From: Marsupella aquatica
Taxonomy: Eukaryota; Plantae; Marchantiophyta
Length of the DNA: 64,000 nucleotides
Direction: 5' to 3'
NCBI GenBank assembly: GCA_973895155.1
Contig: OZ316893.1
Coordinates: forward strand, 20,526,857-20,590,856
Each line of letters begins with the position of its first letter. The stretch's first letter is position 1. This document shows, one piece after another, positions 3,099-54,123 of this stretch. Made by a program: the position numbers and the translations under genes. A model generated the notes under the pieces. The model did not search any database. It was not told the DNA's origin and was given only the letters and a program-made list of their open reading frames with translations.

Positions 3099-4344
3099 TA
3101 GAGTATATAGTAAGAGCATCTCCAGCTAGGTTGCAAAGCCATGTGACCTCCATCTTTTTCCATTAGCAGCCATCATTTTCAGGCAAAGCTCCCCAAGACC
3201 ACTCTATATCCCCAAATGAAAGGAGGCCCACCACCCAAATGCAATTATGTTGCCACTAGATTGTCGGGCTAGATTGGTAATCACACTAGGCACCCACAAA
3301 ATGCTGCCCCATATCAATTGACCTTCTTCCAGCCACAAAGTGTCACTTGTGACGAGAAACTCACAGCACGAAGAATACTCCCAAGTGTGTACTTTGTGAC
3401 TGACTATGGATGGAGGCTGGTTACAGAGTTCACTGGTGGTGATTCATGAAAAGGATGCAGGCCGGCTAGTTTTGAGGTCTCTCAATCAGTTAGTAACAGG
3501 CAAGCTGTCACACCATTCTAGGTAGTGTTAGAGTGTATCGTACTATCTAGATCCGTATGTTTGGTATGTGTGCTATATGAGCCGATAAGGTTTTGTCAGG
3601 TTTGTGTGAGAGGGTACTTCTCACTTGTGAGGCATTGAAAGGTCATCTTTCAATGTTGAGCCTTGGAGAGAGAGGAGCTTGAGTGGCTATGGTGGCTATG
3701 AGCTCCGCTTGTGTAACGTGGATTCCTTGAGTAGTGCAAGGTGCGTTGGCTTGACATACGTGTGTGATCGGATCGGTGCGGGATCGATGGGGTATTGTTG
3801 ACTGGGATCGTTGTGCCAATTGTATGGAGATTACATTGAAAGATCATGAGCTTCAAACTCTGTTGTGCGGACAGAAGCTCAGTCTGAGTTTATCGTTGAC
3901 GGTGACGGTTCGTGGTAGCTCGAATCAATTGGATTTGTGTTTGACGCGGATTCATGTTTCTTGAATCGTTGGTTCTATTGTTTGAGTACTCTGTTGCTAT
4001 TTGATCTGGTTCTGGCCAAGCTTGAACGTTGGATCTGGATCTGGTCTAGATCTGGATTGAGTTGGAGTCTAGATCTGGAAAAAGATGGCCGAAGGTTGCT
4101 GCTTGTATCGCACTACTGTTTTGTGGACAGATCTGTTGGAATTTTGAGTGCTCGCAGCATTTTATTGTCAAGGGACGCTCACCAAATGTCCCAGAAATGT
4201 GCGCGACAGGTTTGCAGAGGTCAAGAGCCATCGACGTTGCCATTTTTTTGAAGGAAATTGCTGCTTTTGAGTGGCAAATGTTGCCATTTCTGAGCCCGAC
4301 GACTTCTGTTTTGTGTACACACATAACTGTGCGCGCATAAGGCG

Positions 4345-4565
4345 ACGCGTGAGGTCACCCATCCCGAAAGTGCTCCCACCATGAGCGCAAAGTCACCCAT
4401 CGTGAGCGCAAGCAGGCGCGAGGTCGAGGTCACCCATCGCGAGCGCAAGCAGGCACGAGGTCGAGGTCACCCATCCCGGGGCTGTTCCGGGTCGTGAGCG
4501 CAAGGGGAGGCACGAGGTCGAGCGCGAGGAGGTCACCCATCCCGGGGCTATTCCCAGCCGCAAGC
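4345..4565 (+). repeat. GC-rich tandem repeats in the retrotransposon leader
   Basis: gtcacccatc recurs 5 times, interleaved with gagcgcaagcaggc and gaggtcgag. Confidence 0.75.
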
Positions 4566-5132
4566 GCTTAACTGGCAAGTTCTCATCCCACCTTGTGTGC
4601 ACACAAGTTTTCACAACTTGTTTAGATTCAAGCGCCAGGGGGCTTTATACACTTTCCGGTTTGCTTAGAACCTTGTTTCGGGCCAAATAAGAGGCTCTTT
4701 AGAGGTTTTTGATAGTTTTGAGTTCATCTAAATACACAGATTGAACTAATTGTGCATAGTTTCTCATCTATAACATTGGGATATCATGAAGCCTATTATG
4801 AAGGCCTTTCATTGAACATTATGAATATTTATTTGATCAATGTGTGATCACTCTTGGTGTGGAGAGTTAGTGTTTGACTATTCTTGTTGATTGGATCCTC
4901 TCCACGCTTGTTTCCTGTTTATGTGCCATGTTGGTTCGGTGTGGGGGCTTGATTCCATAGGAGTGATCCGGGTTTGCAACTGGACATTCTAGTGTGCTGT
5001 GTATTTCTCTCCTGGTGATGTTGGAGTGATGCCCAACACACCATGGTGAGTGCTTGTGGTGCTGACAGGGATAGATTGCCCTTAGGGTTAGCACATAGAT
5101 TAGGTTAGGGTTGGTCACCACGGATTCTTCTG

Positions 5133-7150
5133 GTGCTGCTGGATTACCCGATGGACGATGGACGACGGACCGATTTCACTCGGAGTGGGGCACAGTTTCG
5201 GCCAGCGGCATTGGTAGCAATCAGCAGTGCAGCTTCAGACAGTGATTTTGATGAGGACTCAGTGACCAGTTCTCCTCATGATCAAGTGGTTGCACCTTTG
5301 TTGTGGGATATGGACGAGATGTACGGGGCTACAAAGGGCCCACGACGATACTCTGGTGCAGTTGGCACGATTGATCTGGATGACTTCATCCAGGAGTTTG
5401 ATACGTGGTGCGATATGCAGACATTGCATAACGCCACATTGTTTACCCCTTTCATGGCATGGAAGGGATTATTTCAGCATTTGGAGGGGCCACCCATGGA
5501 TGACTACCATGAGTTTCGGAAGGCTCATTTGGTTGAGATTGAGGCATGGAGGCAACATTGGTCGCCTAATTACGTGTCCATCACCTATGGCACTAGTGCG
5601 GCTGCCCAACCCATTGCCACAGCTGCTGCTTCTTCTAGCAGCACTAGCCAGAGTGGCACACCATCCACCAGCAGCACTCCAGCAACATCCACCGCTACTC
5701 CTGCCGGTGTGATTGCGACAGGAACTGGAGTTGCGCCAACATTTAACCCTATGGTGGAATTCTTTGAGGTACTGAAGCAGAACTATCAGGGTGTAAGAAC
5801 TGATAAGTTGAAGGGTCTTCAGGAGTTCCAGCGCAAGACTGGAGAGAGTCTACGTGAGGCATACACTCGTATGCTCAGATTGATCACTGTCACCAAAGGA
5901 ATGACAGAGGCTCAGGCAGTCCAGTTTTGGTATGCAATTCTGGACAGAGAATTGCGACGCAGAGTGAGAGATGTCACTCTGCTTAGGGATGCAGATCCCA
6001 CATTAGCAGTTGTTTTTACACTTTCTGAGCGCATTGAGCTCAATATGGTGAATGAGAAGGTGGTGACTTCCGGATTTGCCAAGGAAGCACCAAAGGCTGC
6101 ATCCACATCCACACCACAACCTACTACACGGAAGAGCCAGAGGGAGAAGCCTACTACACGAGAGTCTACCAGCCCTCTGTGCCCTCTTATGTTGGACAAC
6201 AATCAGGATGTTGAACCTGTGGTGGGGATCATGCACAGAGATATTGCCTAGATCATAGAGGATCAGGGGGAGCATCAGCACCTGATCAGCGACAGTGTGA
6301 TCATTGTGGAGCTCCTGGACACACCAAGGATAGGTGTTTCTCACTCCACCCTGAGTTACGGAGGGGAGGATCCCGTACACATGATCAGGGAAGAGGAGGA
6401 GGAGGTAGAGGTGGTGGACGTGGTCGTGGCATGCCACATGCAGGGAGACAGGGAGGTGACGCTGCCCCTGCTGTAACCATAGATCCAAAGGATGCTAAGA
6501 TTGCTCAATTGGAGCAACAGCTAGCTGCCATGGCTAGTTCCCAGGCGAGACCTACTTCTGGTGATGGGGCATCTACATCCTATGGATCTTCCACATCCCA
6601 TGGTCCTTCCACATCTTATGGAGCTGATGGAGATCTTGCCACCATGGGATTCATGTGTGGCACTGCACATATTGATGCATCAACAACTTTGACACGTGGG
6701 GCAGCCAAAGCTCTTGAGCCCCGAGGAGCAGTAGTGGAGCTAGATCCACATAGGGGGGATGCACGTCGACAGACAAAGCTTCCTCAGTCTTTTACATTGT
6801 CAGAGACAGTTCAGACTGCCTCTATGAACCCGGTTCAGACAAACCCTGGCGTGGGTAAGTTGGAAGAATCCGGTAGTGATACAGTAGGGATGACAGGTAC
6901 CCTGCTGGGGGTGGCTACTGCCATAGTACGCACCCCATTATTTTCAGCGACAGACATGCTGAACTTGGGAGTTGGTCTTGCAGAAGTATTCAGATTGGCA
7001 GCTACACTCTGTGAGGACACTACAGTTGTTGCTTCCCATGTAGAAGCGGCTTGCAGTGTTGAAGCAGTGAAGACCATACCACCTACTGCTACTAGTGAGA
7101 CATGGCATGCAGCAGCAGCAAGGTTTAGGGTTTACCAGCATGCCCTGCAT
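5133..7150 (+). pseudogene. Gag region of the DNMT-gypsy element (frameshifted), with two zinc knuckles
   Basis: Retrotransposon gag-like LQEFQRKTGESLREAY; knuckles C*TCGGDHAQRYC (6209) and CDHCGAPGHTKDRC (6296) in the frame of ORF 6431. Confidence 0.8.
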
Positions 7151-7179
7151 TTGAGAGGACTAGGTTTAAACCTAGTGTT

Positions 7180-7620
7180 GTGTCATTGGATAATCGGAGT
7201 GGTATCTTCCGATTAGTTGGGCCTTCTGGAGCAGTATACCAGCCAGAGAGAGTGTTACTGGATACTGGTGCTAAGCCCTTGATGTTGGGGAAGTCTGCCA
7301 TACGTGGATTGGGATTGCGTCCAGAGGATTTGGAGGATTGTCCCTTTCCCATTCAGACTTCATTGGGGGGACCTACACCTACATAGCATATCACCAGGAG
7401 ACCACTTGATTTGAGGATTCAGGAAGGTCATACCACAGATAGCTCACAGATACAGGCGCGAGCTATTCTGACTAAGGCAGAGTCATATGATGTGTTGGTG
7501 GGATGTACAGTGCTCTACCCCACGGGATTTATTCTTGATTTTTTGGGAGGAATCAGTGTCATATAGACCTGATTGGCAGTCAGGAGATGCTCGATTGAGA
7601 AAATTGCCAGTGAGATTTAG
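7180..7620 (+). pseudogene. Aspartic protease of the DNMT-gypsy element
   Basis: RVLLDTGA active site; YDVLVG flap-distal motif after an in-frame TAG at 7384. Confidence 0.8.
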
Positions 7621-7840
7621 TGGACCTGTGGGAGACCCTAAATCCACACCATTGTCTTTGGCAGCATTCAGTGGTGTAATTGCTGGACCTGATGATTTGA
7701 TTGAGGGTAATGCGCATGCAGCCAATGTTCCACCATTGGAGGAGTCTCACGAGGAGCACATCATGCGAGGATTACCTGTTGGCAATGTTGTGCCACCAGT
7801 GTGGGGTACTGCACAGGCCTTGCCATAGGCAGTAGCACGA

Positions 7841-8900
7841 TTGGTACATGATGCATGGCGTCATGCTTTTACATCACAGTCAGGAGCAGAGCAGTCTCTT
7901 GCAGATGGACCTGTGACTCTTTCACCATTGGATACCACTCCTATTGCTTGGCAATATCCACCGGAGGGTATTTGTTTGTTGGATCTTTTTGGTGGGATTA
8001 GCACTGGATTGGCTGCTATTCTTCAGGCAAGAATTCCTGTGCATCGTTATTTGTATGTGGAGACAGATGAGACAGCACGGAGGGTCTCATTGCGACATGT
8101 GGCTATGTTGGTGGATAGATACCCACAGTTGCTGCCAGTGGATACTGTTCGTGGTTATCAGCATGCACTACCTGCTGATATTTCATTGCTGGGGGCGGAT
8201 CATCTACATCGTGTTGGCCCCATTGATTTGGTGATTGCTGGTTGGCCATGTCAGGGCCAATCTAGAGCTGGCATTGGGCATGGACTTCATGATCCACGCT
8301 CTGCATTGTTTTGGGAGATGTTACGGGTGCTGCGTCATCTCCAGCTACATCAGACACAGTCTCCAGCATATATTTCGGAGAATGTGCCATTGTTAGATGA
8401 TGATCGTAGTCGGATTGTTGCCAGTGTTCACCAGGTGAGGTCTTGGATTGGACCTGCTGTGTTATTGGATGCTGCACGTGTGGGTTCTCGTGCATATCGT
8501 CCACGCTTGTGGTGGACTAATTTGATCCCATGTGAGGTGCTGAAGCGCGCATTTGACAGCATTCCACGCTCACTAGCCTTAGTGGTGGATGATATTTTGG
8601 ATCCAGGGTATCGTGCACAAGGTGTGACCCAACCTGATAGACCTCCATTGGCAATGGTCAATGTAGTTGGGTGCCCACGTTGTGCATTACCCACTCTTGT
8701 AAGCCACTCTGTTTCATATGCATTCAGAGCAGGTGGCCCTGGACTTGTGTGGGACACAGCTCTCCAGCAGTTAGTGGAACCTACTGCTGATGAGAGAGAG
8801 CGTGCTATGGGATTTTTGACTAGCACCACTGTAGTTGCCTCTATGTAAGAGGGTTTGTGGCGCCAGGTTCTTGGTCAAGCAATGGACCTGAATTGTTTGA
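7841..8900 (+). CDS. C5 cytosine DNA methyltransferase domain (DNMT3/DRM-like, unpermuted) embedded in the retrotransposon polyprotein; one stop before motif X
   Basis: Motif I LDLFGG (7979), II YVETD, III ADIS, IV AGWPCQG (8240), V DPRSALF, VI ENV (8378), VIII RPRLWWTN (8498), IX ERERAMGF, X LGQAMD (~8870, same frame after TAA at 8846). Confidence 0.9.
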
Positions 8901-9248
8901 CTTGGATTATCAGCTTGGGAGTAGCTGAACAGTTGTGGATGCGCTCTGCTGGGATTACTGATTGTCCCTTGGTGAGCTTGCGGTCCACTGAGACAGTACT
9001 GACCACAGCTGGGGGCGAGCAGACAGTCCATGGACCTATGGCAGGATTGGCCAAGGCTGGACAAATTGTTGAGCAGGGAGGGAATTCTCAATCTACTGCT
9101 AAATAGCAATCATCGGCTATCTCTTCTACCCTACAAAGAGATATTAGGGATTTGGTGAAGAGTTGGGAACCATAACTTGACCCGAAGTTGACAGGGGAGG
9201 AGAGACGTTGCATGCATCGATTCCTGAAGAGTTACTGGAATTGTTAGC

Positions 9249-10601
9249 ATGAAAGATTTGGGGACATTAAAGGGTCTTGGTATTCAGATTGAATTGGCTA
9301 GTGATGCGCCAATCTTTCGTAGGCCATACCGTTACAATGACATGGAGAGAGCTCTGATTCAAAGTAGAACTCAAGATTTGTTGGAGGCTGGATTGGTGGA
9401 GATTTCATATGGGGAGTATGCATCTGCCACCGTGATGCCAGCCAAGAAGGATGTGCATGGCAATTACACAGATAGGTGCATGTGTGGTGATTACAGACCT
9501 ATTAATCGCCAGACAAAATCTGATCGATATGCCATGCCCACACTTGAGGAGATCTTTGATGTTGTGGGGCATGCAAAGGTTTTCAGTTCATTGGATCTGA
9601 GGGCAGGGTACCATCAGCTTCCAATTAGGCATGCTGACAGGTCCAAGACAGCATTCTGGGGGATTGATTCTTATGGCAAAGATCGTTTGTATCAGTGGTT
9701 ATTCTTACCATTTGGGTTGAAGAATGCACCAGCTGAGTTCTAGAGAGTCATGGATCGAATCCTTGCAGGTTTGGATTTTGTCAGATGTTATATTGATGAT
9801 ATTTTGGTCTATTCTTTTATTGTGGAAGAACATCAGCAGCACTTGCAGATTGTGTTGGAGAGATTGAGAGCACATGGGCTAAAGCTCCATCCTGGCAAGT
9901 ATAAGTTTTTCCAAGACCAGATTGAGTATTTGGGCCACACTATATACCCAGGGGGATTGGGTGTACAGCAGACTAAAGTGGAGGCCCTTACACAGATTCC
10001 TTGTCCTACTGACGTGAGTAGAGTTCGTGCATTCTTGGGATTGGTGAGCTACTACAGGAGGTATGTTAAAGGATTTAGCCAGCTTGCTAAACCTTTGACC
10101 ATACTCACTAAGTTGGATCACGAATGGATTTGGGGTGATGACTAGGAGCATGCCTTTCAGGAGTTGAAGCAAAGGTTGGCATCATCCCCTATTTTGAGAA
10201 GACCCATTTCAGGCAGACCATTTCAGCTACACACTGATTGGAGTGGAGTAGGACTTGGAGCAGTGCTGACTCAGAAGGATGATGAGGGGAATGAGTTTGT
10301 TGTGGCTTATGCCAGTAGATCAAACAATTCAGCAGAGGCTAAGTATAGCTCTTATGAGGGAGAGTGTTTGGCAGCAGTGTGGGCTGTTGCACACTTTCGT
10401 TGCTACTTGTTTGGTAACCCCTTCACCTTGATCACTGATCATCAGCCTCTTAAGTGGTTAATGGAGTCTGACAAGCTTACAGGGAAGCTTGCACGATGGG
10501 CATTGTTGTTACAGGAGTATGATTTCCAGGTGGTGCATAGGCCTGGAAAAGTGAACTTGGATGCAGATGGATTAAGCCGCAATCCATGTACCAGTCAGTA
10601 G
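9249..10601 (+). pseudogene. Reverse transcriptase and RNase H of the DNMT-gypsy element
   Basis: MCGDYRPIN, LDLRAGYHQ, PFGLKNAPAEF*R, YIDDILVYS, TDWS, TDHQPL, ADGLSR; all one frame with stops at 9741 and 10143. Confidence 0.93.
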
Positions 10602-10682
10602 GATGAGACTGGAGCCAGATGGCATGATGAGTCAGATAAGGAGATGGTGCCAGGATGACATGCATCTACCTTTCTTTGTTGG

Positions 10683-12216
10683 GTGTCAGCATACAATGGA
10701 TCTGTGGACTCTACCTCATTGGATGGAGTGGATGATGAGTCTTCAGATGTGGATGTTGGTGAGGTAACTTTTGGACAGCAAGATATTCACAATGATGTGA
10801 GAGTGTTGGAATATCTGCGCAGTGATTCTATTGTTGGCAGTGTTGATGCCAAAGAATGTGACAGGGTTCTACAAAGAGCCAAGAGGTTTCGATGGGAGGG
10901 AAACCATCTTTTGAGAGTACTGCATGATGGTAGAGTGTTGGTGGTCCCAAAACCATCACAGAGAGTACATTTGGTGCGACATGCGCACGAGGAGTTGGGT
11001 CACTTTGGTGTAAGGCGCACTTACAGCTTGCTGCAGACACAGTATTGGTGGCGTGGTATGCACACTCATTTCCAACAGTTGATAGCTAAGTGTATGGTAT
11101 GTGATAGAGTGAGAGCATCATTTAATGCTCCCACTCCCCAGTTGCACCCGTTGCCGATCATGGGTTTGGGATATCGTTGGAGTTTGGATTTTGCTGGTCC
11201 ATTACCTCTTACCCAACGTCATAATCGGTATGTTTTGGTCATGGTGGAGCACTTCTCCAAGTGGATTGAGCTAGTGGCGTTGCCAGATAAAGCTAGTGGA
11301 GGAGTTGCTGCTACATTTTTGGATCGTGTACTCAGTCATTTTGGAGCACCAGCTAAGGTGTTGACTGATCAGGGAACTGAGTTCCGTGGAGAGTTTGTGT
11401 GAACAACCTCTGATTGATCATCGTACTACCTCTCGTGATCATCCTGAGGCAGATGGATTAGCTGAGAGAGTTGTGCAAATTGTGAAGAGAGGATTGCGTA
11501 AGTATGGCTTGCAGGTTGGTCATCTGGGAGATTGGGATCTCCAGCTACCTTGGTTAGCTATGGGCTACCGTTTCAGTCGGCAAGCATCACTTGCATCCTT
11601 CTCACCTTACTTTTTGCTCTATGGTAGAGAGCCAGATTTGCCAGCAGCTATTCGTCGTGATGCTGCATCAGTTGTGAACTTGGATGATCCTGATGTTTGG
11701 GTCAAGGTGTGTTCATTGAGAGCACGGGTATTTCAGCGAGTGATGCCCATGGCTTTCGACAACCTTGCCATTGCCCAACATTGTGATACTTTGAGGTATG
11801 CCACTATTCGTGGAGGAAGTTACCGTGCAAACATTCGGCGATTTCATCCTGGTGATTATATTTATTTGCAGCAGACAGCACCCACGACACTTGATGTGAT
11901 GACAGGCCGGACAATCTTACGTGTGCGTGAAGTGTTTCCTTCTGGTGTCCTGATGTTGGAGGGACGCGATGGTATGGTTTGGAAGGATCATGTGCGCAAC
12001 TGTGCACCATGTCACCTTCCCAACATTGATGGTACAATAGATCCAAGCTTGGCACATATTTGTGCTGGCTTAAAATGTATGTTGTGTGGATCTGCTCAGG
12101 GAGCAGCTACTATGTTGATTTGTGATAAGTGTTCTAGAGGATGGCACATGTCATGTTTGACACCACCATTGCAGGTGATTCCTAGTGGATCATGGTTGTG
12201 TCCTCAGTGTCGGTGA
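10683..12216 (+). pseudogene. Integrase with C-terminal PHD finger (frameshift near 11395)
   Basis: HHCC (HEELGH...CMVC), WSLDFAG, TDQGTEF, GLAER; C-terminal CMLC...ICDKCSRGWHMSCLTPPL...WLCPQC is a C4HC3 PHD. Confidence 0.92.
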
Positions 12217-13047
12217 AGCCGACTAGTTATCATTTGTGTTCTCTTGGCAGATATGGATTGTAGGTAGGTGATCGATGGGGCTCACTTGCACTCGGCCTCC
12301 TGATCTTCACACCTAAAAAGGTGTATATCAACGTTGTAGAACTCATGGCTAGCTAGAGTTAGGGGACCTTACTCCCAACTAGGGGGGCGATTGTGGGTTT
12401 TGGACATGTGTGGACATGAGTTCCACTTGTATTCCATTCTCTTGTGTTTGTGATGTGGCAGTATGACTATGTTTGGATGTATGTGACAAGCGATGTATGT
12501 TGTGTAGCAATGTGTATGCGCACGACAAAGCAATCAAAGGTGCAGCTGGGTCCAGTCAACCCTTTCTGCACTGAGGTGGCAAGGTGAGAGGCCAGATTCC
12601 CCGAGCGCTGCAACTGTTTCGTGATTTCCTAGTCGAGTGATCATTTGTTAAGATGATTTGCTTTGTGCTTGGATTTAGTTTTATAGTCTGTTTGTGGGAG
12701 GTTGGTCAAATTTTTGACAAGAAAAAATCTGATTGAGCAATGGAGATTTAATTGCTTCGTGGTCTACGGGGAAGTCTAGTCTACCAAGAAAATAGTGGAA
12801 TCGAGCCAATTCATGAATCTGCAGGCTAGATAGCAATATTACTACAGTATCAGTTCAAAACATCCAAGCTTCAATGATGGTGAATGACATGGAATTCAGT
12901 CTACAGAGAAAGTAGGAAACTTGGGAATCAAGGGCCAATTCACTAATCCACAGGTTAGGTAGCAAATTTTTTTCTAGGATGAGTTTGGAGACAATCGCGG
13001 AACTCGACTACCTTAAAACTTAGCTTTGGCATCGCTGACTCCGACGC

Positions 13048-14416
13048 TGTCGTGATAATTCAATTATTCATGATGAAATCATTACCACTAAGTATATAAG
13101 TAAGTATATAGGTTAGCTTTATATATTGTTACGGGGTAACTAAATAATTTGACTATTATGTATGTGCATGCAAGGTAAGCAACTATGCAAACCACAAGAT
13201 GCATGTGCAAATTGTTTTATTTGCATGCAATAGTCATTTTATGTGCATGCAAGATGAGCAAATGTGCAAGCCACAAGGTGCATGCACAAATTATTTTAGG
13301 TGCATGCAAATTGTTTTATTTGCATGCATTAGTTATTTTATGTGCATGTAAGGTGAGCAAATGTGCAAGTCACAAGGTGCATGCACAAATTATTTTAGAT
13401 GCATGCAAATTATTTTAGGTGCATGCAAATTATTTTAGGTGCATGCATTAGTTGTATTATGCGCATGCAAGGTGAGCAAATGTGCAAGCCACAAGGTGCA
13501 TGCATGCACAAATTGTTTTAGGTGCTTGCATTAGTTGTTTTACTTGCATGCATTATTTGTTTTGATTGCAATAGTACTAGCACACATTCCTACGTTGGAT
13601 GTGTGTCACTTGGCTTTCATCCAAGCGTTTGGGCGTAATCCATGCCCTCTTGGATTCAATATAAATAAAGTGGTGAGAGACACTCTCTCCTCATTCTCAC
13701 ATTTTGATAATTTTTGCGTCGAAGCGATCCTCTTTTCTTCTCTCATCTTTTTCTTCTATTCTTTGCCTTATGTACATAGTAGTGGGGCATCATTTGGCCC
13801 GGATAGCAAAGGAATGAGTGATAAACTTATAGATGGGATCTTAGGGAACAACGTCTCTTTGAGAACTTAGGGGTGAGACATCTTTTGGCCCGGATAGCAA
13901 AGGAATAAGAGAGTCATTATGAATCCAGGAAGGAGAGATATCCATAATTTTTCCTTTCGTAACCCATTTTTGGTTAGAGTCTATCTTTTAGACAAACTAT
14001 CCATGAGGCAACATTTAACTTATCACTTTGGAGCTCAATTGTAGCTGTTGTTATGAGTTCTAATGAACCAATAATATACCCAGTAGTATCTTATCAAGAG
14101 GAGTGTGAGTGCATTATCTTTGTCCTTTATTGAAGTTATGGATCTAAATAGGAGTCCAAATAATATTCCTATTTCATTTTCTCTTGGAGATATTAGGATT
14201 ATATGTCGTAAAAAAATTAGTTTCCGAGATGTGTTAATTCGCAAATATGGTGAAGTAAAATTTAATAGTATATTAATTTCACCTAAACCTTTCTTAATAT
14301 TCATCACCCTTTTTACAAGAATTATCATTTTGGTTTTAGTGTAAAACTTATGAGCATGCAAGGTTGACTTCATAAGAGCTAACATGCTCTTATCAGAAAA
14401 CACGGTCACCCGGACA
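13048..14416 (+). mobile_element. Isolated, more diverged LTR of the same family as 35607-44696
   Basis: TGTCGTGATAATT...CACCCGGACA, colinear with the other two LTRs; followed by taagtggtgagaatgctagg, resembling the PBS region; flanks gacgc/taagt do not form a TSD. Confidence 0.9.
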
Positions 14417-14559
14417 TAAGTGGTGAGAATGCTAGGTGGCAAGGTCCACCACTGAGACTCAGGGAGTTATGAAATCTTGGAAACCAGAATTGAAGTGCCA
14501 GAAGTGGTGTTTCCAATGGTGAAACATTTAAATAAGCGAAAGTTGAAGATCAATTGTAG

Positions 14560-35606: not shown

Positions 35607-37019
35607 TGTCGTGATAATTCAATTATTCATGATGAAATCATTACCACTAAGTATATTAGTAAGTATATAGGCTAGATTTATATTTTGTTACGGAGTAACT
35701 AAATAATTTGACTATTATGTATGTGCATGCAAGGTAAGCAACTATGCAAACCACAAGTTGCATGCACAAATTGTTTGGATGCATGTACAAATTGTTTTAT
35801 TTGCATGCAATAATCGTTTTATGTGCATGCAAGGTGAGCAAATGTGCAAGCCACAAGGTGCATGCACAAATTGTTTTAGATACATGCAAATTATTTTATT
35901 TGCATGCATTAGTTGTTTTATGTGCATACAAGGTGAGCAAATGTGCAAGCCACAAGGTGCATGCACAAATTGTTTTAGATGCATGCAAATTGTTTTATTT
36001 GCATGCATTAGTTGTTTTATGTGCATGCAAATTGTTTTATTTGCATGCATTAGTTGTTTTATGCACATGCAAGGTGAGCAAATGTGCAAGCCACAAGGTG
36101 CATGCATGCACAAATTATTTTAGGTGCTTGCATTAGTTGTTTTATTTGCATACATTATTTGTTTTGATTGCAATAGTACTAGCATACATTCCTACGTTGG
36201 ATGTGTGCCACTTGGCTTTCATCCAAGCATTTGGGCGTAATCCATGCCCTCTTGGATTCAATATAAATAAAATGGTGAGGGGCACTCTCTCCTCATTCCC
36301 ACATTTTGATAATTTCCGCGTCAAAGCGATCCTCTTTTCTTCTCTCATCTTTTTCTTCTATTCTTTGCCTTATGTACATAGTAGTGGGGCATCCTTTGGC
36401 CCGGATAGCAAAGGAATGAGTGGTAGACTTATAGATGGGACCTTAGGGAACAAGGTCTCTTTGGGAACTTAGGGATGGGGCATCCTTTGGCCCGGATAGC
36501 AAAGGAACAAGAGAGTCATTATGAATCCAGGAGGGAGAGATATCCCTAATCTTCCCCTTCGTAACCCATTTTTGGTTAGAGTCCATCTTTTAGACAAGCC
36601 ATTCATGAGGCAGCATTTAACTTATCACTTTGGAGCTCAATTTGTAGCTGCTGTTATGAGTTCTAATGAGCCAATAGTATACCCAGTAGTGTCTTATCGA
36701 GAAGAGTAGGAGTGCATTATCTTTGTCCTTTATTGAAGTCATGAATCTAAATAGGAGTCCAGATAACATTCCTATCTCATTTTCTCTTGGAGATATTAGG
36801 ATTGTATGTCGTAGAAAAATTAGTTTTCGAGATGTATTGATCCGCAAGTATGGTGAAGTAGGATTTAATAGTATATTAGTTTCACCTGAACCTTTCTTAA
36901 TACCCACCACCCTTCTTACAAGAGTTATCATTTTGGTTTTAGTGTAGAACTTATGGGCATGCAAGGTTGACTTCATAAGAGCCAACATGCTCTTACCAGA
37001 AAACACGGTCACCCGGACA
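35607..37019 (+). repeat. 5' LTR
   Basis: TGTCGTG...CCGGACA; about 14 substitutions versus the 3' LTR counted by eye (~99% identity). Confidence 0.95.
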
Positions 37020-37023
37020 TAAG

Positions 37024-37041
37024 TGGCGACCATACTAGGGA
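37024..37041 (+). other. Primer-binding site, probably tRNA-Arg type
   Basis: tggcgaccatactaggga 4 nt after the LTR; TGGCGACCA is complementary to the 3' end of plant tRNA-Arg(UCG) as recalled, not checked. Confidence 0.65.
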
Positions 37042-37166
37042 CCCGCTGGATTTTGGAGTTAACTTGTGCATGTCTAAGTTTTGGTTGATAGAGAGAGATA
37101 TGATTTTGGAACTATAAGTCCTTAAATTGTGAGTATATCATTAGTCAAGAAGGAAAAATTGCAATC

Positions 37167-39849
37167 ATGGGAACTGAGATTAATCCAACTGACATGGAGA
37201 GGTTTTCATCTTTGGTTGCTGCATACTTATATGAAATGAAGGAGAAGGAGATGGAAGAGAACAAGAAGAAGAAATTGCTTGGAAGGACCACCAAGTACTT
37301 GCACTCGGTCCTTACTAAGCAAGGAGAATTTGATGGGCGGAATGTGACAAGGTATCTTAAGGGATACTGGACAGAGGCTACAATTCACAAGATTGATGCT
37401 GAGGTAGCAGTCAAGGAGTTTGTATCTTTGGTGGAACCTGAACTCAAGGAAATTGTTGTTTCCTTGACAGAGGGAGCTAATGGAGAAAAGACATGGAATA
37501 TTTTTGAGGTGAGAATGAAAGAAGAATTTCAGCTGGAAGATCCAGATAGGGTCACCCAAGCATCTTTCCTTGATTGGGTGACTGACAGAAGTAAGAAGTT
37601 GGGACCTCAAGAGTTGATGAGGGAGTTTGTCAAGAAGTTCAATCAGCTTCCCGAGATAGGCTCTGAAGTTATCAAGGTCCAGAAGGCTACTCTACTCATC
37701 CGAGCTGTTGATGAGAAGCTTCAGGATGAGTTAGAGCTTGCTCTTGAACTAATAAACCCAAGTCGTGGGGCTAATCAGCCAACTTGGGAGGAGGTTGAGA
37801 CTGCTGTGCTAAGAGTCACTCAAAAGCACAGAAGGAAGAAACTCAGTCATGAAGGTGTTCTGGACACAGTAGCACCTGTGACTTCTATGAGGAGAGTGGA
37901 GAAAATAGAATCAACAATCGGTAGGGGTGAGAAGAGTGTGGACAAGATGGATGAGTTGTTTGAACTCATGAAGAATCTTACCATTCTTGCCACCCAAGCT
38001 TTGGGACAAATTGGAGGCAACACATCGAGGCCACCATCAAGAGGTAGTGGAGGAGCAGGAAGTTCTATCGGAGGACCAAGAAGTTGGAATTGCATCTGGT
38101 GTGATAGCAAAGAGCACTCTAGAAGAGAGTGTGTTGAGCTGTCTGTTGCTCTAAAAGAAAGAATGGTTAAGTTTGTTGAGCATGATGGCATAAGAAAGCT
38201 TGCCTACCATGATTCAGGTGAACTTATTCTAGTCAATGCCAACAAAGGTGGCATGAAGGTTAGGTGGAGAAGAGAATGACTGAACATCATAACTCAGCCA
38301 TTGCTGCAGCTTATGGGGACAAGGGTGAGCATGATGCAGATGTCTACACTGTGTTTGGGGATCCTTCGTCAGTAGGATCCTCAGAGACAGATAAGAAAAG
38401 GCTGGCAGAGTTTGTAAGAAGGAAATCAGGATGGAATGATCATGTTTTGATCTCTGCTTTTACTGCAGAAGTAGGGTCTCTATGGGATTCTATGGTGGAG
38501 GAGAAGAGAAAGTTTGTGGAGCCTTTGGAAGAACGTGCTAGAGGAAAACAGAAAGTGGATTCTGGACCTTCTACTCCTAGGCCATTACCTGATGTGCCAA
38601 TGAGAAGGAGTGTTCGATTTGAGGACAGAGTAAGCACACCAAAAGAGTCTACTTCAACCCCTTCAAAGGAGCTGGAAGTAGTAAAAAAGGAGAAGGCAGA
38701 AAAGAAAGGACCTGGTTGGATACTTGGAAGGGATGTGGAGCAACACATAGAGTATGACCAGGTTGCTGACAAGTTTTGGAAAGCCACAGTGAGTGGAGTC
38801 ACCAATGAGGAGTTTTTTTTGCTTGCATGAACTCCAAAGCTCAAGATGCTTTACTTGCAAAGGTGAAGTGAAAAAGATTTTATAAAGAAGGACCTCATGC
38901 ATTGGGAGCAGAGTTTTATTCTGAAGTTGAAGAGGATGGAGAATGATCATTTTCAAGAGCTAATACAGAGTGTCAAGTGTATCAAGTGAATGTTGAGAAA
39001 ATCCTTGGACCACAGATGCTAGGGTTTTCAAAAGAGGAGATCCCTGGACCACAGATGCCAGGGTCTTCAAAGGAGAAGATCCCTAGACCACAGATGCTAG
39101 GGTTTTCAAATGATGAAGTTTCTGGACCACAGATGCCAGAGTCTTCAAAAGAGGTAGTTTCTGAACCAAAGATATCAAAAGCTAAGCTATTGGACTTGGG
39201 AAGATGGGAATCATTGATGGGAGAAAAGTTTGATAAGTCACAAGAAATGGCAAAAATCAGTCAAGAGGAGGTACTCAAGGCTTCACAAAGTGTGTGGGTC
39301 ATGTGTGCCTCTACCATGAAGAATCTTGAATTGGGAGATGGCAAGGAGTCCATCTTGGAACCATTTTGGGCAAGAACTTGCTCAGTGGTGGAAGTGGAGC
39401 TTGTGGGGATGGAGGGCAAAGCCTGAGCATTGATTGATACTGGATCAGAGGTAAACCTAATGTCAAGAAGCATCTATGATCTTGGGCAATGGATGGTTGA
39501 TTGTGATACCCAGTGGTCGGTAAACTCAATCAATCGTTCAAAGAATACACTTTGGGGAGGATGTCCAGGAGTTCCAGTGAAGGTTGGCAATGTGATTGAG
39601 CCAACTAACATTTTTGTGCATGATAGCTTATCCTATGACTTGATTTTAGGGCAACCCTACATTACTCAAGCTCGATTGGAATACAAGGTTTTGCCAGATG
39701 GTACTCATATGGCAAAGATGAGGAGTCGAGATGATTTGCGGATTATCCAGTTTCCTGTGGTGAAACCTGGACATTGGAGGAACCGAAAGGAGTTGAGAGG
39801 ACCTGAATCCAAGGAAGGAAATGAGGATTTCCTGAAGGTGTCTCGTTAA
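37167..39849 (+). pseudogene. gag-protease region (frameshifts and stops)
   Basis: Zinc knuckle CIWCDSKEHSRREC; 36-bp repeat GPQM(L/P)G.SKE x4 at ~39000-39160; protease LIDTGSEVNLM and YDLILGQP. Confidence 0.85.
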
Positions 39850-39890
39850 ACAATGCGGGATGGCAGGGCGCCGTCTCTGATGACCCGCTG

Positions 39891-42800
39891 ATGGCTTGGA
39901 ATGTGAATAGGTTGTTGGCAAGCTCATTTGAAGGTGAAAGCTTGTATTATCGAATTTCTTATGTAAAAGTGTGTGAAACTACTAGAAAATTCAAAAAGAA
40001 AATTACGAGGATTGAGGATACTATGCAAATACATGGATTGCTAGAGGAATGTGAGGAGATTGAAGGCCTTCTAGATGAAGAAGGAGTGGTAGTCTCTTTG
40101 GAAGAAGTAATTGAAGGTCTTTCAGAGGGGAGAACTTTTATGGAAATCAATCATGAGTTGTATGGTGAGTTATCTCAATTTGTTGAGGTCAACACCAAGT
40201 ACAAAATGGTGGACAAGAAAGTGAGACCAGCGGCACTTCCTTTGCCTTTGGATGCTAAGGAAGTTCTAGAGAAGGCAAGGAAGGAGACTAGTCTTAGAGA
40301 TCGGACTAAGATTGACCATAAATTCACAGAGGAGACCCTTAATCAACTAAGGATTGGCGATGATGGGCTGTTGACAAGGAGAGAAAGAGAGAAGTTTCGA
40401 CAAATGATTGGTGAACATGGTAAGACTTTTGCCTTTTATCCTGAAGAGATGGGATGTGTGGATCCTAGTGTTGTTACTCCTATGGTGATTTTCACTGTCC
40501 CTCATATTCCTTGGGACTTGAAACTTATTCCGGTGCCAAAGGCTTTGTTGCCTAAACTTATTGATCTATTGAAGGAGAAACTTTCTATTAGGATCTTGGA
40601 AAGAGCAGATGCACCTTATTCTAATCGTTGGTTTACCATTCGCAAGAAAAATGGTAAACTTAGATTTATTCAGGATATGCAACCCCCCAACAAGGTTACT
40701 ATTCGCAACACTGGAATAGGACCTATAGTTGATGAGTTTGCAGAAGAGTTTGCCGGTAGAGCCATCTATTCATGTGGTGACCTCTATTCAGGCTATGATC
40801 AGTTTCAGTTGGCTCAAAGTAGCAGAGATATCACTACAATGAGGACACCTTTGGGGCTACTTCGCATGTGTACTTTGCCTCAAGGAGCAACCAATTCAGT
40901 GGCACACATGCAGAATGCCATGAATAAGGTACTACATCGTTTTATTCCAGAGAAGACTCAATCATTTCTTGATGATATGCCAATCAAGGGGTGCTTGGAG
41001 ACAAAGAAGGATGAGACTGTACGAGAAGATGGGTTGCGACAGTTTGTATGGGAGCACATTCAGGATGTAAAGGCCATCTTGAAGAGACTGATTGAGGTTG
41101 GGCTCACTCTTTCTGGAGAAAAATCTTCATTTGGACTCCGTGAAGTCCTGATTGTGGGACAGATTTGTGGAGTTGAAGGGAGGAGGCCAAATGAAGGAAA
41201 GGTGGATGCAATCAATCAGATGAAAGATTGCAGAACATCTTCAGAGGTGCGAAGATTTCTTGGTGCTTGCTTGTTTTACAGGGTTTGGATTCCACACTTT
41301 GCACATATTGCTGATCCTTTGTATGGATTACTAAGGAAGAATGTGCAATTTGTTTGGACTGAGGCACACAAAGAGGCTATGCAAAGATTAAAGGAGGCAT
41401 TACTTAGCCCCCTTGTTCTACGTCCCTTATGCTATGATGGGAGGCCAATCATTGTTACTGTCGATTCAAGCCCTGATGCTGCTGGATGGGCAGTAGGGCA
41501 AGATGATGAAAAGGGAAGGAGATTTGCATCAAGGTTTGGGGCTAAGGTCTTCTCAGCAAGACAAAGACATTATCCTCAAATCAAACGAGAATTATGGGGT
41601 GCAAGAATAGCTTTGTGTCAAGAAAAGGTCTACTTGATTGGAGCACAAGTAATTCTTGAGACAGATTGTTTACCACTTTTAGGGATGATTGCTAATTGTG
41701 ATACTCCAGATATTGCTATGCTATGTTGGATAGCTTTTATCAGAATGATCAATTTTGAGCTTCGGCATATTGCTGGAAAAGATAACCTTGTAGCTGATAT
41801 GCTGTCAAGAGCTCGATATGATCATACTGAGATAGAAGCAGTTCAAGTTATGAGTGGAGAATTTGAGGTTTTACAGTTGCAGGAGGAGTTATATTCTGGA
41901 CAGTTGCTTTTGATTGGAAGGTACCTTAGTACTCTTCAAAGGTCTTTTGAATTGACAGATGATGAGTTTCAGCGATTACGAAAGAGGCTTACAAGTTCAT
42001 GCTGAAGGATGGTGTCTTATGGAGAAGATCTTTTAAGAAAAGACATGTTCCATGTAGAGTCCTTGATACTGAAGAGGAGAAGAAAAAGGTCTTGTGGGAC
42101 TCTCATGATGCAGTTGAAGCAGGACATCGAGGAGTTAGAGCTACTTATGAACGGATTCAGAGATGGTATTGGTGGTCAGGCATGTATGTGGATGTGAAAT
42201 CATATGTTGGGTCTTGTAAGACTTGCCAATACTACTCTAAAGTTCGATTTAGAGATGGGTTTAATCCTACTAGTCTTTTATCATTACATTTTCAGTGGGC
42301 AATAGATGTGGTACACATGCCATTGGGAGTTAGAGGAGCAAAGTACCTTGTCCTTGCAAGAGAAGATTTATCTTCTTATGTGGAAGGAACGGCTTTGACC
42401 TCTAATACTACTGAAGCAGTATGCAGGTTTGTACTTGAAGATATCATTGCACGTCATGGTTATTTTGTGCAAATGAGAGCAGATAGAGGAGAACTCAATT
42501 CGGATGAGGCTGCAGATTTTTTTGATCGATTCAACATCAAGCTCAAACTTACTACTGCCTACAACCCGGAAGGCAATGGGAAGATTGAGCGAGGGCACCC
42601 ATCAATTGTAAATGCCTTGGTAAAGTCTTGCCAAGGAAAAGCATCAATGTGGCCAAACCTTTTACCGTTTGCTCTTTTAGCAGATCGGATGATATGCACT
42701 TCAACAACAGGATTTGCACCTGCCGAATTGGTCTGTGGACATTTACCTTTGATGCAGACTGAAGAGAATGTTCAAAGCTGGAGAACAATTGATTGGGAAG

Positions 42801-43240
42801 ATGACATCACTCGAGAGAAATTATTGGAACGAAGGATTGAGCACTTTAGCCAGACCAAGGAGAAAATTGAGGAGGCTTTACTAAGGCTAAAGAAGGCTCG
42901 TGAGAAGAATAAGGAGCGATTTGATAAGACTCATCGTTTGAGGCCAATTCCAATCTAGAGTGGAGATTGGGTGTTGATCTATGAAGGAGGCCTTGAGCAA
43001 TAACATTCTACCTTAAAGAAGTTTGCACGTCGTTGGAGAGGACCGTTTGTTGTTGAAAAAGTCAATCCTAATGCAACCTACTTGGTTAGAGAACTGGATG
43101 GAGCAATGCATCGCACTCCCTATATAGGAAAGCAAGTGAAATTGTTCAAGCGGCGAACTCACTTTATGACAGAAGAGGAAGAGTTTGAACCAGATGACTT
43201 TGAAGCTTTGGATGAGAATGAAGATTATCGCGATCTATAG
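39891..43240 (+). pseudogene. RT-RNase H-integrase
   Basis: LRFIQDMQ, DLYSGYDQF, LPQGATNS, FLDDMPIKG, TVDSS, ADMLSR, HHCC, WAIDVVHM, ADRGE, NGKIERGH, RWRGPF; frameshift near 41990, stops at 42956 and 43001. Confidence 0.93.
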
Positions 43241-43283
43241 GTGTGGTGCATCCGGAGGTTGCACAGGTTTGGTAGGGGTGATA

Positions 43284-44696
43284 TGTCGTGATAATTCAAT
43301 TATTCATGATAAAATTATTACCACTAAGTATATTAGTAAGTATATAGGTTAGATTTATATTTTGTTACGGAGTAACTAAATAATTTGACTATTACGTATG
43401 TGCATGCAAGGTAAGCAACTATGCAAACCACAAGTTGCATGCACAAATTGTTTGGATGCATGTACAAATTGTTTTATTTGCATGCAATAATCGTTTTATG
43501 TGCATGCAAGGTGAGCAAATGTGCAAGCCACAAGGTGCATGCACAAATTGTTTTAGATACATGCAAATTATTTTATTTGCATGCATTAGTTGTTTTATGT
43601 GCATACAAGGTGAGCAAATGTGCAAGCCACAAGGTGCATGCACAAATTGTTTTAGATGCATGCAAATTGTTTTATTTGCATGCATTAGTTGTTTTATGTG
43701 CATGCAAATTGTTTTATTTGCATGCATTAGTTGTTTTATGCACATGCAAGGTGAGCAAATGTGCAAGCCACAAGGTGCATGCATGCACAAATTATTTTAG
43801 GTGCTTGCATTAGTTGTTTTATTTGCATACATTATTTGTTTTGATTGCAATAGTACTAGCATACATTCCTACGTTGGATGTGTGCCACTTGGCTTTCATC
43901 CAAGCATTTGGGCGTAATCCATGCCCTCTTGGATTCAATATAAATAAAATGGTGAGGGGCACTCTCTCCTCATTCCCACATTTTGATAATTTCCGCGTCA
44001 AAGCGATCCTCTTTTCTTCTCTCATCTTTTTTTTCTATTCTTTGCCTTATGTACATAGTAGTGGGGCATCCTTTGGCCCGGATAGCAAAGGAATGAGTGG
44101 TAGACTTATAGATGGGACCTTAGGGAACAAGGTCTCTTTGGGAACTTAGGGGTGGGGCATCCTTTGGCCCGGATAGCAAAGGAACAAGAGAGTCATTATG
44201 AATCCAGGAGGGAGAGATATCCCTAATCTTCCCCTTCGTAACCCATTTTTGGTTAGAGTCCATCTTTTAGACAAGCCATCCATGAGGCAGCATTTAACTT
44301 ATCACTTTGGAGCTCAATTTGCAGCTGCTGTTATGAGTTCTAATGAGCCAATAGTATACCCAGTAGTGTCTTATCGAGAGGAGTGGGAGTGCATTATCTT
44401 TGTCCTTTATTGAAGTCATGGATCTAAATAGGAGTCCAGATGACATTCCTATCTCATTTTCTCTTGGAGATATTAGGATTGTATGTCGTAGAAAAATTAG
44501 TTTTCGAGATGTGTTGATCCGCAAGTATGGTGAAGTAGGATTTAATCGTATATTAGTTTCACCTGAACCTTTCTTAATACCCACCACCCTTCTTACAAGA
44601 GTTATCATTTTGGTTTTAGTGTAGAACTTATGGGCATGCAAGGTTGACTTCATAAGAGCCAACATGCTCTTACCAGAAAACACGGTCACCCGGACA
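43284..44696 (+). repeat. 3' LTR, preceded by PPT ggtaggggtgata
   Basis: 1413 bp, near-identical to 35607-37019. Confidence 0.95.
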
Positions 44697-52960: not shown

Positions 52961-54123
52961 AGAAGGGCCATCAAGCGAGCGAGCAAGCGAGAGAGCGATG
53001 TCACGATGTGGGAATTGACTGCCAGGCAAGCGCGCGAAGAAGCGCTTCGAGGCCGATTCGGTGGGCGCAGGACAGCGAAAACGAAACAACCGAGAATGAG
53101 CGAGATCGCCATTGCTGGTCCGGGCTAGGGCGGCGTGGAAGGAGGGGGATGGGAGGAAGAAGAATTCGGACATTTCAAATGAATGCCGGGCAAGGAAGGA
53201 TATGGATTGGCGGATGGAATAGGTCGGTACATTGGCTCGCAGATTGAATGATGCCTCTGGAGGTTGTGGTGGGGGATGGGACACTATCGGGTGGAATCTC
53301 TCCTTCCACGGGCATGGAATTTCGATTCATGGCCCAATTCTCGTAAGCGAGATGCATACACGAAACAGCACAATCATACAGATCGAAATTGATTGATCGA
53401 TTGATCGGCGTTTTGTCTGACGAAGGACATAGCTTCAGAGCCATGGATGTTTAGTTTGCAGGCGGCAGGACTTCCGGGGGGAGATGGACAATCGAGCAAG
53501 AGACCACCGGGGGTTAGGGTTTGGACAATCGGAATTTAGGCAGTACACTAATGGGAGAGGCGTTGAGCGACCAGTGACTACTACGAATGTGTGGCACCGT
53601 TAATTATCCAGAAGCATTCGAGGCGTTGAGGGATCAGCGACTACTGCACACCTGTAGCACCGTTAATTGTCCAAAACATTCTCAACTGACAGAGCGGCAG
53701 ACGATTGCGGAAATTGAGTTCAATATTTAAGCTGGCTAGGGGTGCACGAACGGATCACCAATGAGGGAGTTTTATATTCTGTTGCTTGGTCTGTGCGGGG
53801 AGGAGCTTGCACATAAACTGACATAATTACTCCCATATGATCGTAATGCCCTTGCCGTGAGTTGTCGAAGTCACGTCACGATTCAGTATCTACGCACGTT
53901 CTCTCATCAGTCAGTACTTAGTAGTTATCCGGCTGCTGCAGATCCCTCCGGTAGACCTGGCAGACAGCTTCGCCCACGAGACCGCAGTAGTCATTTTTTG
54001 CTGCTTCTCCGTGTTGCACTATTTGCCTTTAAGACAGTCTACCGTCTTGACCTACAGTATTTGTCTATCGGCCCTGTGATCTAGCCGATGAAGGATTGAG
54101 TGAGTGGATTGTAGACGGTAGAT

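Follow-up and report, generated by a model that had tools for sequence, protein, structure and literature searches.

A Ty3/Gypsy-type retrotransposon family of liverworts, peat mosses and green algae with its own DNMT3-like methyltransferase and split terminal units

The 64-kb stretch of Marsupella aquatica DNA analysed here (in the following, the window) harbours a broken copy of a high-copy Ty3/Gypsy-type retrotransposon and, as judged from sequence, the family to which it belongs carries its own DNA methyltransferase (DNMT) and is present in liverworts, peat mosses and green algae. We narrowly favour a reading as a whole in which a leaky stop codon would cause the DNMT to be packed in bulk, the enzyme would methylate the element's own DNA, and a circular form of that DNA would be cut at a palindrome located inside the LTR.

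Composition of the element and distribution of the family

The element spans positions 3506-12527 of the window, not 5133-12216 as the preliminary description had it, and its parts follow the order gag-PR-DNMT-RT-RH-INT-PHD (Table 1). That description did not include the PHD finger, the permuted termini or the predicted self-priming site. The family shows the domain order gag-PR-RT-RH-INT with a DDE integrase that characterizes Ty3/Gypsy elements, together with TG..CA ends and a TSD within the 4-6 bp range (AAGC in the window, AAGG in L030 and GGTC in L054), while no matching TSD was found in the relatives L056 and L058. On the 3' side of the DNMT, Pfam matches were obtained for RT, RH, INT and the C-terminal PHD finger (PHD E 2.3e-11); the protease match is weak (E 0.003) and the gag region gave no Pfam match. 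The window copy is dead, with frameshifts near 6176, 7127, 7540, 9244 and 11390 and, besides the stop at 9104, nine in-frame stops (6212, 7384, 7826, 8846, 9173, 9741, 10143, 10599 and 10656).

Table 1. Parts of the window element and of its borders (window coordinates)
Feature	Position	Strand	Basis or remark
Left TSD copy AAGC	3502..3505	+	equals 12528-12531
Left terminal unit A, starts TGTC; putative promoter end, R and U5	3506..3835	+	depth edge, joints; unlike unit B
Predicted self-primer and transcript start	3645..3656	+	perfect complement of 3833-3844
Primer-binding site at end of A, predicted Tf1-like self-priming	3833..3844	+	complement of 3645-3656
Gag region, CCHC-like Cys/His stretch; frameshift near 6176, stop 6212	5133..7126	+	position, Cys/His motif, weak CCHC/VLP matches of alignment A1
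Aspartic protease, DTG at 7261; stop 7384	7129..7545	+	
DNMT3-like C5 cytosine methyltransferase, motifs I-X unpermuted; stop 8846 in window copy	7952..8950	+	
Conserved stop TAG-CAA-TCA (UAG-CAR-YYA readthrough context), end of Gag-PR-DNMT frame	9104..9112	+	
Reverse transcriptase (YIDD at 9789) and RNase H; stops 9741, 10143	9246..10598	+	
DDE integrase, HHCC zinc finger; frameshift near 11390	10659..12030	+	D-35-E spacing measured in relative L024
C-terminal PHD finger and stop	12061..12216	+	Pfam
Polypurine tract-like G run directly before unit B	12378..12391	+	
Right terminal unit B, putative start of U3, ends CACGACA	12392..12527	+	
Right TSD copy AAGC	12528..12531	+	

All six C5 methyltransferase motifs that had been reported in canonical order on the element's strand were recovered, on the + strand and unpermuted, starting at 7979 (LDLFGG), 8240 (GWPCQG), 8378 (ENV), 8498 (RPRLWWTN), 8792 (ERERAMGF) and 8870 (LGQAMD). 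The profile PF00145, which had been suggested as a check, matches the window domain with E 4.3e-10, and a fold predicted from a 59-row alignment (pLDDT 95.6, compared with 30.7 for the single-sequence fold) matches DNMT3A/B/C. Within the family the domain is unpermuted and intronless and has conserved catalytic residues, with the Cys kept in 172/176, the Glu in 175/176 and both motif VIII Arg in 173/176 of the relatives. By these comparisons the domain is a DNMT3-like, unpermuted C5 methyltransferase, and the DNMT3-like flavour without DRM permutation that had been proposed earlier is supported by both motif order and predicted fold. Identity with a plant DRM was rejected, as the motifs run from I to X without circular permutation and DRM chains match only partially.

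Seventy longer relatives were collected, under names that include Marchantia, Calypogeia and Sphagnum, and DNMT-bearing relatives occur in Marchantia, Calypogeia, Riccia, Sphagnum and chlorophytes; in Marchantia polymorpha, annotated copies of the family are present. DNMT-bearing Gypsy elements, which the preliminary description did not know as a characterized feature of land plants, thus exist in bryophyte genomes, as probable kin of the element described from Klebsormidium (PMC5890265), and no named Klebsormidium protein is found among the matches. Loci from prokaryote genomes were weak partial matches in 78 of 80 cases, the other two (L112 and L113) being retroelement contigs inside bacterial bins, and among viral contigs only distant phage-type methylases were matched. 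In sequencing run X1, contigs covering the element add up to a depth roughly a thousand-fold that of the unique flank, which points to a large family, depth not being a copy number.

That the DNMT represents a one-off capture or a neutral passenger is an idea to which the dead window copy might lend itself, but we give it practically no weight, since it is refuted by the hundreds of relatives, by the preservation of the catalytic residues, by purifying selection and by the agreement of the trees. In all eight between-subfamily pairs the DNMT has a dN/dS of 0.11-0.21, so that the neutral evolution named beforehand as a possible refutation is not what is seen; within subfamilies the values are 0.24-0.51 and similar to those of RT, as expected because copies decay. 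The DNMT and RT phylogenies that had been asked for agree, and a PR-DNMT-RT clade is supported in both (RT 1.0, DNMT 0.97), the trees being composed of family members without named reference Gypsy lineages, host DNMT3/DRM or Klebsormidium sequences. The sister copies carry the DNMT, and they carry it at the same place within the element, in line with the earlier statement that there is no sign of a secondary insertion. From the sequence record, the DNMT is a family trait under purifying selection.

A conserved stop codon behind the methyltransferase

The preliminary description had also read 7487-9106 as one frame interrupted only by point stops. The frame from 7472 indeed contains stops at 7826, 8846 and 9104; however, 7487 to about 7540 belongs to the protease frame, the frame changes near 7540 in this copy, where sister contigs vary in length, and the stop at 9104 is conserved. 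In the near group, each of the 19 in-frame loci has TAR-CAR-YY at the end of the DNMT frame, compared with 3 of 357 decay stops; these loci are not independent and amount to about four lineages on the tree. Five of the stops are TAA, and 15 of the 19 loci have CAR-YYC and not the canonical CAR-YYA. UAG followed by CAR-YYA, which is the signal of TMV-type (type I) readthrough (PMC2754532), is present in the window, L002, L024, L025 and L026, the largest subfamily having CAR-YYC instead. In L024, the conserved site holds the single stop in 2406 codons, and in the window no variant of at least 5% occurs at positions 9097-9115 in any of the four runs. On comparative grounds, the stop at 9104 does not stem from decay; the family conserves it, together with a TMV-like context for readthrough.

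DNMT and RT share one frame, which is split by the conserved stop in the near clade and continuous in the distant clade, in P0082 and in the algal-type proteins; a DNMT out of frame with pol, which had been named as a refuting case, is therefore not what is found. Of the earlier view that the DNMT is a polyprotein product, the common frame with RT stands, but in the near clade the domain closes the Gag-PR frame ahead of the conserved stop and is no ordinary Pol domain. The conservation and sequence context of that stop make it likely that the DNMT ends an abundant Gag-PR-DNMT protein in this clade. Tca2 and Tj1, as described, have their stops at gag-pol, whereas here the stop follows protease and DNMT. 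The conserved stop is absent from the distant clade (0/13 loci) and from the algal-type elements, and bulk expression of the DNMT is thus not required in all members. With considerable confidence we infer that readthrough of UAG-CAR-YYN would yield much Gag-PR-DNMT and little Gag-PR-DNMT-RT-RH-INT-PHD. With readthrough at the conserved stop likely of low rate, the DNMT would be packed in bulk.

Expression at the level of Gag, as suggested by the conserved stop, could serve a DNMT that is released by the protease and acts in trans on host chromatin or on other copies, by self-limiting silencing or epigenome editing, and both copy-number control and host effects are discussed in PMC5890265. We nevertheless consider such an action quite improbable: the DNMT itself lacks a targeting domain, the algal-type elements carry it inside Pol beside the integrase, which fits work on integrating DNA, and the Klebsormidium methylome is described as ordinary (PMC5890265).

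Split ends, self-priming and the palindromic junction

No pair of direct LTRs bounds the window element, and its terminal units A and B are unrelated in sequence. The window shows a short form, A-coding-B, and B runs directly into the flank, as it does there, in 5 of 14 resolved loci; the full layout A-coding-B-A-B is seen in L030, L054, L056 and L058, and both A-to-B and B-to-A joints were found in sister contigs. The segment at the end of A is complementary over 12 nt to a site within A (0 of 1000 shuffles as good), and equivalents of 11-17 nt exist in each of the four relatives tested, giving 5/5 with the window. Since it does not start with TGG, the primer-binding site is not of the tRNA type; the 64-kb window contains no tRNA gene. 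A TATA box lies about 30 nt upstream of the predicted transcript start in three of the five elements (L054, L056 and L058), and no clear one is visible in the window. Given that a polypurine tract precedes B and that a self-priming complement follows A, the LTR of reverse transcription would be B-A; the element ends are not LTRs. Transcription would start inside A, self-priming would occur after A and the plus strand would start from the purine tract before B, so that the cDNA would, very probably, be [B-NN-A]-coding-[B-NN-A].

The integrated ends lie at the internal junction GACA-NN-TGTC, which is found also in both algal-type loci (L112, L113). The A2/B2 join corresponds, within 1-2 nt, to a fusion of the end before the PBS with the start after the PPT. 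We consider it probable that the cDNA ends join into a circle with an A2/B2 junction and that the DDE integrase cuts one GACA-NN-TGTC, giving A-coding-B-NN-A-B; that circular cDNA is cut at this motif by the DDE integrase is, from the sequences compared, likely. The short form could come from B-to-B recombination, from a one-LTR circle or from cutting of both junctions. IS3-type insertion sequences offer a comparison for DDE cutting of a circle at abutted ends, and DIRS elements also pass through a circular intermediate. One could alternatively imagine that template switches, or cutting of linear or concatemeric cDNA at internal junctions, produce A-coding-B-A-B and A-coding-B without any circle. 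The short form is indeed common, and linear cDNA cut at both junctions would give it directly. The long form, however, requires a B after A2, at a join where the two predicted cDNA ends are fused almost exactly, and a circle or a head-to-tail dimer is the simplest source of such a join; we regard the absence of a circle as unlikely.

As for the role of the enzyme in the circle scheme, we lean slightly towards methylation of the cDNA or the circle by the DNMT, probably at CG, whereby the DNA would enter chromatin marked like host repeats and the PHD finger would likely steer insertion. CpG depletion is 0.36 in the window element and 0.36 in a neighbouring DNMT-less Gypsy, so that there is no footprint of self-methylation; it is a measure that cannot tell self-methylation from host methylation.

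A more specific role is conceivable, in which the DNMT would serve to modify the attachment sites of its own element, methylating CG/CWG of GACA-NN-TGTC so that only one circle junction is cut and integrated copies are not cut again. Within the junction lie CG as well as CAG/CTG sites, and it is conserved between algal-type and bryophyte-type elements, all of which carry a DNMT. The junction's spacers and flanks vary (GC/GT/AC/AT and TG/TA) in the pattern of deaminated methyl-C, and Symbiodinium DIRS elements with a Dnmt3 share the A-B-A-B layout (PMC5890265). Host methylation of repeats accounts for the same decay, though, and no DNMT-less sister with normal LTRs was found, which leaves this role rather doubtful. 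Of similarly low probability is its extension to retroelements across green plants that would combine self-primed, LTR-like reverse transcription with IS3-like cutting of a circle, DNMT3 methylating GACA-NN-TGTC so as to permit one cut and protect integrated copies. If true, DNMT and junction would make up a restriction-modification-like switch inside a retrotransposon.

Relation to known elements and significance

The closest known element is KnitGypsy-Dnmt3 of Klebsormidium nitens (de Mendoza et al., 2018; PMC5890265), with which the window family, found in bryophytes with kin in chlorophytes, was compared by published description. Gypsy domains, an unpermuted, intronless Dnmt3-like domain, purifying selection and DIRS-like A-coding-B-A-B repeats are common to both (PMC5890265). 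In KnitGypsy-Dnmt3 the DNMT lies in the Pol ORF with RT, whereas a conserved stop separates the two in the window family; in the algal-type elements of our set it is likewise inside Pol, adjoining the integrase. The passages of PMC5890265 on this element make no mention of a PHD, priming sites or an integration model. In yeast, the Klebsormidium Dnmt3 domain gave no methylation, a result that its authors call inconclusive, human DNMT3B also being inactive, and Symbiodinium Dnmt3 domains carried out de novo CG methylation (PMC5890265).

SymbioDIRS-Dnmt3 and other split-repeat DIRS share the A-coding-B-A-B layout and, in the former, the Dnmt3 domain (PMC5890265), but use a tyrosine recombinase, whereas the window family has a DDE integrase, TG..CA ends and a 4-bp TSD. 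Membership in DIRS was rejected on account of the rve/DDE integrase and the lack of a tyrosine recombinase frame, no frame above 110 aa for such an enzyme being present in the non-coding stretches 3836-5133 and 12217-12391. In Tf1/Sushi and plant Tcn1 (PMC6317226, PMC4600332), the PBS pairs with a stretch near the 5' end of the transcript itself and not with a tRNA, as predicted here, but these have ordinary LTRs and Tcn1 is a chromovirus, while the window family ends in a PHD finger; neither 'PHD' nor 'methyltransferase' occurs in PMC6317226. EpiLTRs / DAM-LTRs are likewise Ty3/Gypsy-like with a DNA methyltransferase and a chromatin reader, but their C5 DNMT is related to DNMT4 and accompanied by a chromodomain, and the same source regards 'streptophyte Gypsy-DNMT3' as a different capture that had been described before (bioRxiv 10.64898/2026.05.21.726589). 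Troyka was rejected, as it has CG..CG ends and a 3-bp TSD and is described from animals only (PMC12440569). In the literature searched, with subscription papers, Repbase, theses and bioRxiv supplements outside the search, no paper was found on the bryophyte range of DNMT-Gypsy elements, the leaky stop or the junction mechanism.

Overall, Gypsy elements that carry a DNMT3 had been described from one alga, and the present analysis adds liverworts, peat mosses and chlorophytes to their range. Such elements escape LTR finders and inflate plant DNMT gene counts. With the priming sites mapped, the 'DIRS-like repeats on a Gypsy', hitherto without an explanation, lead to a concrete prediction: the element would integrate from a circle that is cut within the LTR, a route different from the end-processing known for retroviral and LTR integrases. 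With copies present in the model plant Marchantia polymorpha, the question why a transposon carries a transposon-silencing enzyme becomes testable.

A DNMT3-like methyltransferase in a bryophyte Gypsy family

The observation of a Gypsy element bearing a cytosine methyltransferase (DNMT) is real. The six C5 motifs of the preliminary description were recovered in canonical order, Pfam returned PF00145 (E 4.3e-10), and further matches were obtained to an aspartic protease (weak), RT, RNase H, integrase and a C-terminal PHD finger. The proposed DNMT3-like character was likewise borne out, as DNMT3A/B/C chains were the best matches of a 17-relative profile (E about 1e-15), with HaeIII and DRM-type chains ranking below them (E about 1e-6 and weaker), and as all Foldseek matches listed for the AlphaFold model of the domain (pLDDT 95.6, alignment of 59 rows) were DNMT3 structures (best E 4.6e-16, TM about 0.7). 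The window copy itself is dead, carrying five frameshifts and nine decay stops.

Two protein searches, each with about 8000 candidates scored, gave 70 relatives among longer proteins and 129 among proteins of similar length, the names from the latter resting on 120 of the 129; in a full HMMER search, 185 clusters reached E 1e-30 or better. Hosts named among the matches listed were Marchantia polymorpha, M. paleacea, Calypogeia fissa, Riccia sorocarpa and three Sphagnum species, together with one bacterial-bin name, and none of these listed matches bore the name of a fern, lycophyte or seed plant. At 69-70% identity, elements from liverworts come closest among the named relatives. The placement of the DNMT between protease and RT proved to be one of two layouts in the family. 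In the second, algal-type layout the DNMT lies between RNase H and integrase (RT-RH-DNMT-INT-PHD in 53 of 231 relative proteins), and the names Scenedesmus and Haematococcus are attached to it. Bacterial genome bins also hold retroelement contigs of this family (loci L112 and L113, protein P0272), for which contamination is likely. The algal-type L112 is possibly an element with both C5 and N6 methyltransferases.

Of 176 near-full DNMT domains, 172 keep the catalytic Cys, 175 the ENV Glu and 173 both motif VIII Arg; Glu and not Pro precedes the catalytic Cys in 80, which are proteins of the algal-type layout. The DNMT and RT phylogenies, a comparison called for at the outset, agree: the window's layout forms a single clade in midpoint-rooted FastTree trees without outgroups (support 1.0 for RT-RH, 0.97 for DNMT), built from 47 of 97 two-domain records (all 22 of this layout and 25 of the other), and its inner branching order is identical in both. 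DNMT dN/dS was 0.11-0.21 in all eight between-subfamily pairs, where dS is near saturation, and 0.24-0.51 in six of six close pairs, with similar values for RT.

Features of the window and of related loci
Feature	Position	Remarks
DNMT element	window 3506-12527, + strand	TGTC (3506) to GACA (12527)
Left terminal unit A	window 3506-3835	
Tandem repeats	window 4383-4567	37 bp, short; leader between A and gag
DNMT model	window 7952-8845	
C5 motifs	window 7979, 8240, 8378, 8498, 8792, 8870	
Stop region after DNMT	window 9097-9115	no variant of at least 5% in four family-holding runs (complete table, 12 differences)
3' untranslated motif	window 12274-12300; L024:8355; L025:7939	
Right terminal unit B	window 12392-12527	
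LTR copy	window 13048-14436	90% similar to the Gypsy LTR; 520 bp beyond the right end of the DNMT element
Ordinary Gypsy element	window 35607-44696	RT, RH, INT present; no DNMT match
Its LTRs	window 35607-37019, 43284-44696	about 1.4 kb each, 99% identity
Adenylylsulphate kinase frame	window 54115-54996	293 codons; full domain (Pfam E 4.5e-66), uninterrupted by introns, among repeats
Open frame	window 60965-63991	1008 codons; internal 126-147 bp repeats, C-terminal C3HC4 RING finger
Region past PHD finger	L112:8467-9519	350 residues; weak Tudor match (E 2e-4); Atlas lead, lead only (score 0.87), to N6-adenine methylase clusters
Open frame between pol and purine tract	L113:10033-12174	713 codons; no Pfam family above noise

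The stop between DNMT and RT

The preliminary description regarded point stops as the only breaks of the frame 7487-9106, but the stop after the DNMT is conserved in relatives and is not decay. Most Gag-PR-DNMT proteins of relatives stop 50-170 residues past the DNMT domain, the C-terminal residue of P0002 being the end of the window's frame, and a few gene models continue into RT. Among 80 loci drawn from metagenome contigs, 49 belong to the near group, i.e. the window's clade. TAR-CAR-YY lies between DNMT and RT in 19 of 19 near-group loci with one frame and normal spacing and in 36 of 41 irrespective of frame; the same motif marks just 3 of the 357 stops within domains. In L024, the 2406 codons from gag to PHD hold one stop, located at this site. 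The distant group lacks the stop (0 of 13 in-frame loci), so it is a derived trait of the clade holding the window, and it likely puts the DNMT at Gag level.

In TMV, readthrough is signalled by CAR-YYA after UAG, and one plant reporter gave 32% readthrough (PMC2754532, accessible part). Readthrough is spoken against by 15 of the 19 in-frame near-group stops, which carry CAR-YYC, not CAR-YYA, and the loci amount to about four lineages. In KnitGypsy-Dnmt3 of Klebsormidium, which has DIRS-like repeats, the DNMT resides in Pol, whereas in the window's clade it is separated from RT by the conserved stop; no activity of the KnitGypsy-Dnmt3 domain was detected in yeast (PMC5890265, accessible part). 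The accessible parts of PMC12344493 and bioRxiv 10.64898/2026.05.21.726589 cite these only as 'streptophyte' elements, and those of PMC6317226, PMC11982613, PMC8557442 and bioRxiv 10.1101/2021.11.30.470311 yielded nothing on the window's family. Literature searches, covering the main text of mostly open-access papers, turned up no paper on family members in bryophytes, on the stop or on integration at the junction.

Priming and the integration junction

The window element is flanked by AAGC duplications, and its two ends have no repeat in common. In sister contigs the A end is joined to the B start, and the B end to the A start with two letters (NN) between. Four of 34 self-aligned loci show A-coding-B-A-B, three more show the B-A-B part and one further locus a partial A repeat; the others have no terminal pair, and many are cut short. 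Target-site duplications match in L030 and L054 and do not in L056 and L058. Across 19 PHD-bearing loci, the junction and A come after B in nine; in five, B gives way directly to flank, as it does in the window, and five are unresolved.

The sequence directly after A is no tRNA primer site; over 11-17 nt it is a perfect complement of a site within A, in five of five elements of three sequence types, and none of 1000 shuffles reached the 12 nt of the window. Three of the five have a TATA box about 30 nt 5' of the site within A. The complement appears to fit the self-priming pattern of Tf1-type elements, which the window family would share with them (PMC4600332, PMC6317226, accessible parts). 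Because a G-rich purine tract lies directly 5' of B and the complement follows A, the reverse-transcription LTR would be B-NN-A. The stretch between PHD and purine tract holds a short conserved 3' untranslated motif, perhaps a packaging or dimerisation signal; L024 and L025 are only about 49% identical to the window in the DNMT, yet keep it.

At the join of the second copies, A2/B2, the pre-PBS end meets the post-PPT start to within 1-2 nt, as it would in a two-LTR circle. The integrated ends are located at the internal GACA-NN-TGTC junction, which lies 120-240 nt past the purine tract also in both algal-type loci found (L112, whose contig ends just after the junction spacer, and L113). The L024 integrase is of DDE type with D-35-E spacing, and the element has no room for a tyrosine recombinase.

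A candidate replication cycle

No self-methylation footprint was seen in CpG observed/expected, which is 0.36 both in the element and in the neighbouring DNMT-less Gypsy. From our point of view, the most likely course is that reverse transcription would be primed by the element's own transcript, that the cDNA would be closed into a circle, and that the integrase would cut one internal junction and insert the element with a 4-bp target-site duplication, while packaged DNMT would methylate the newly made DNA. Self-priming, circle formation and junction cutting are suggested by the anatomy of the elements, and the methylation step by the position and conservation of the DNMT and by the finding that Dnmt3 domains from Symbiodinium methylate CG sites (PMC5890265, accessible part). 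In the boldest reading, the junction itself would be the substrate of the DNMT.
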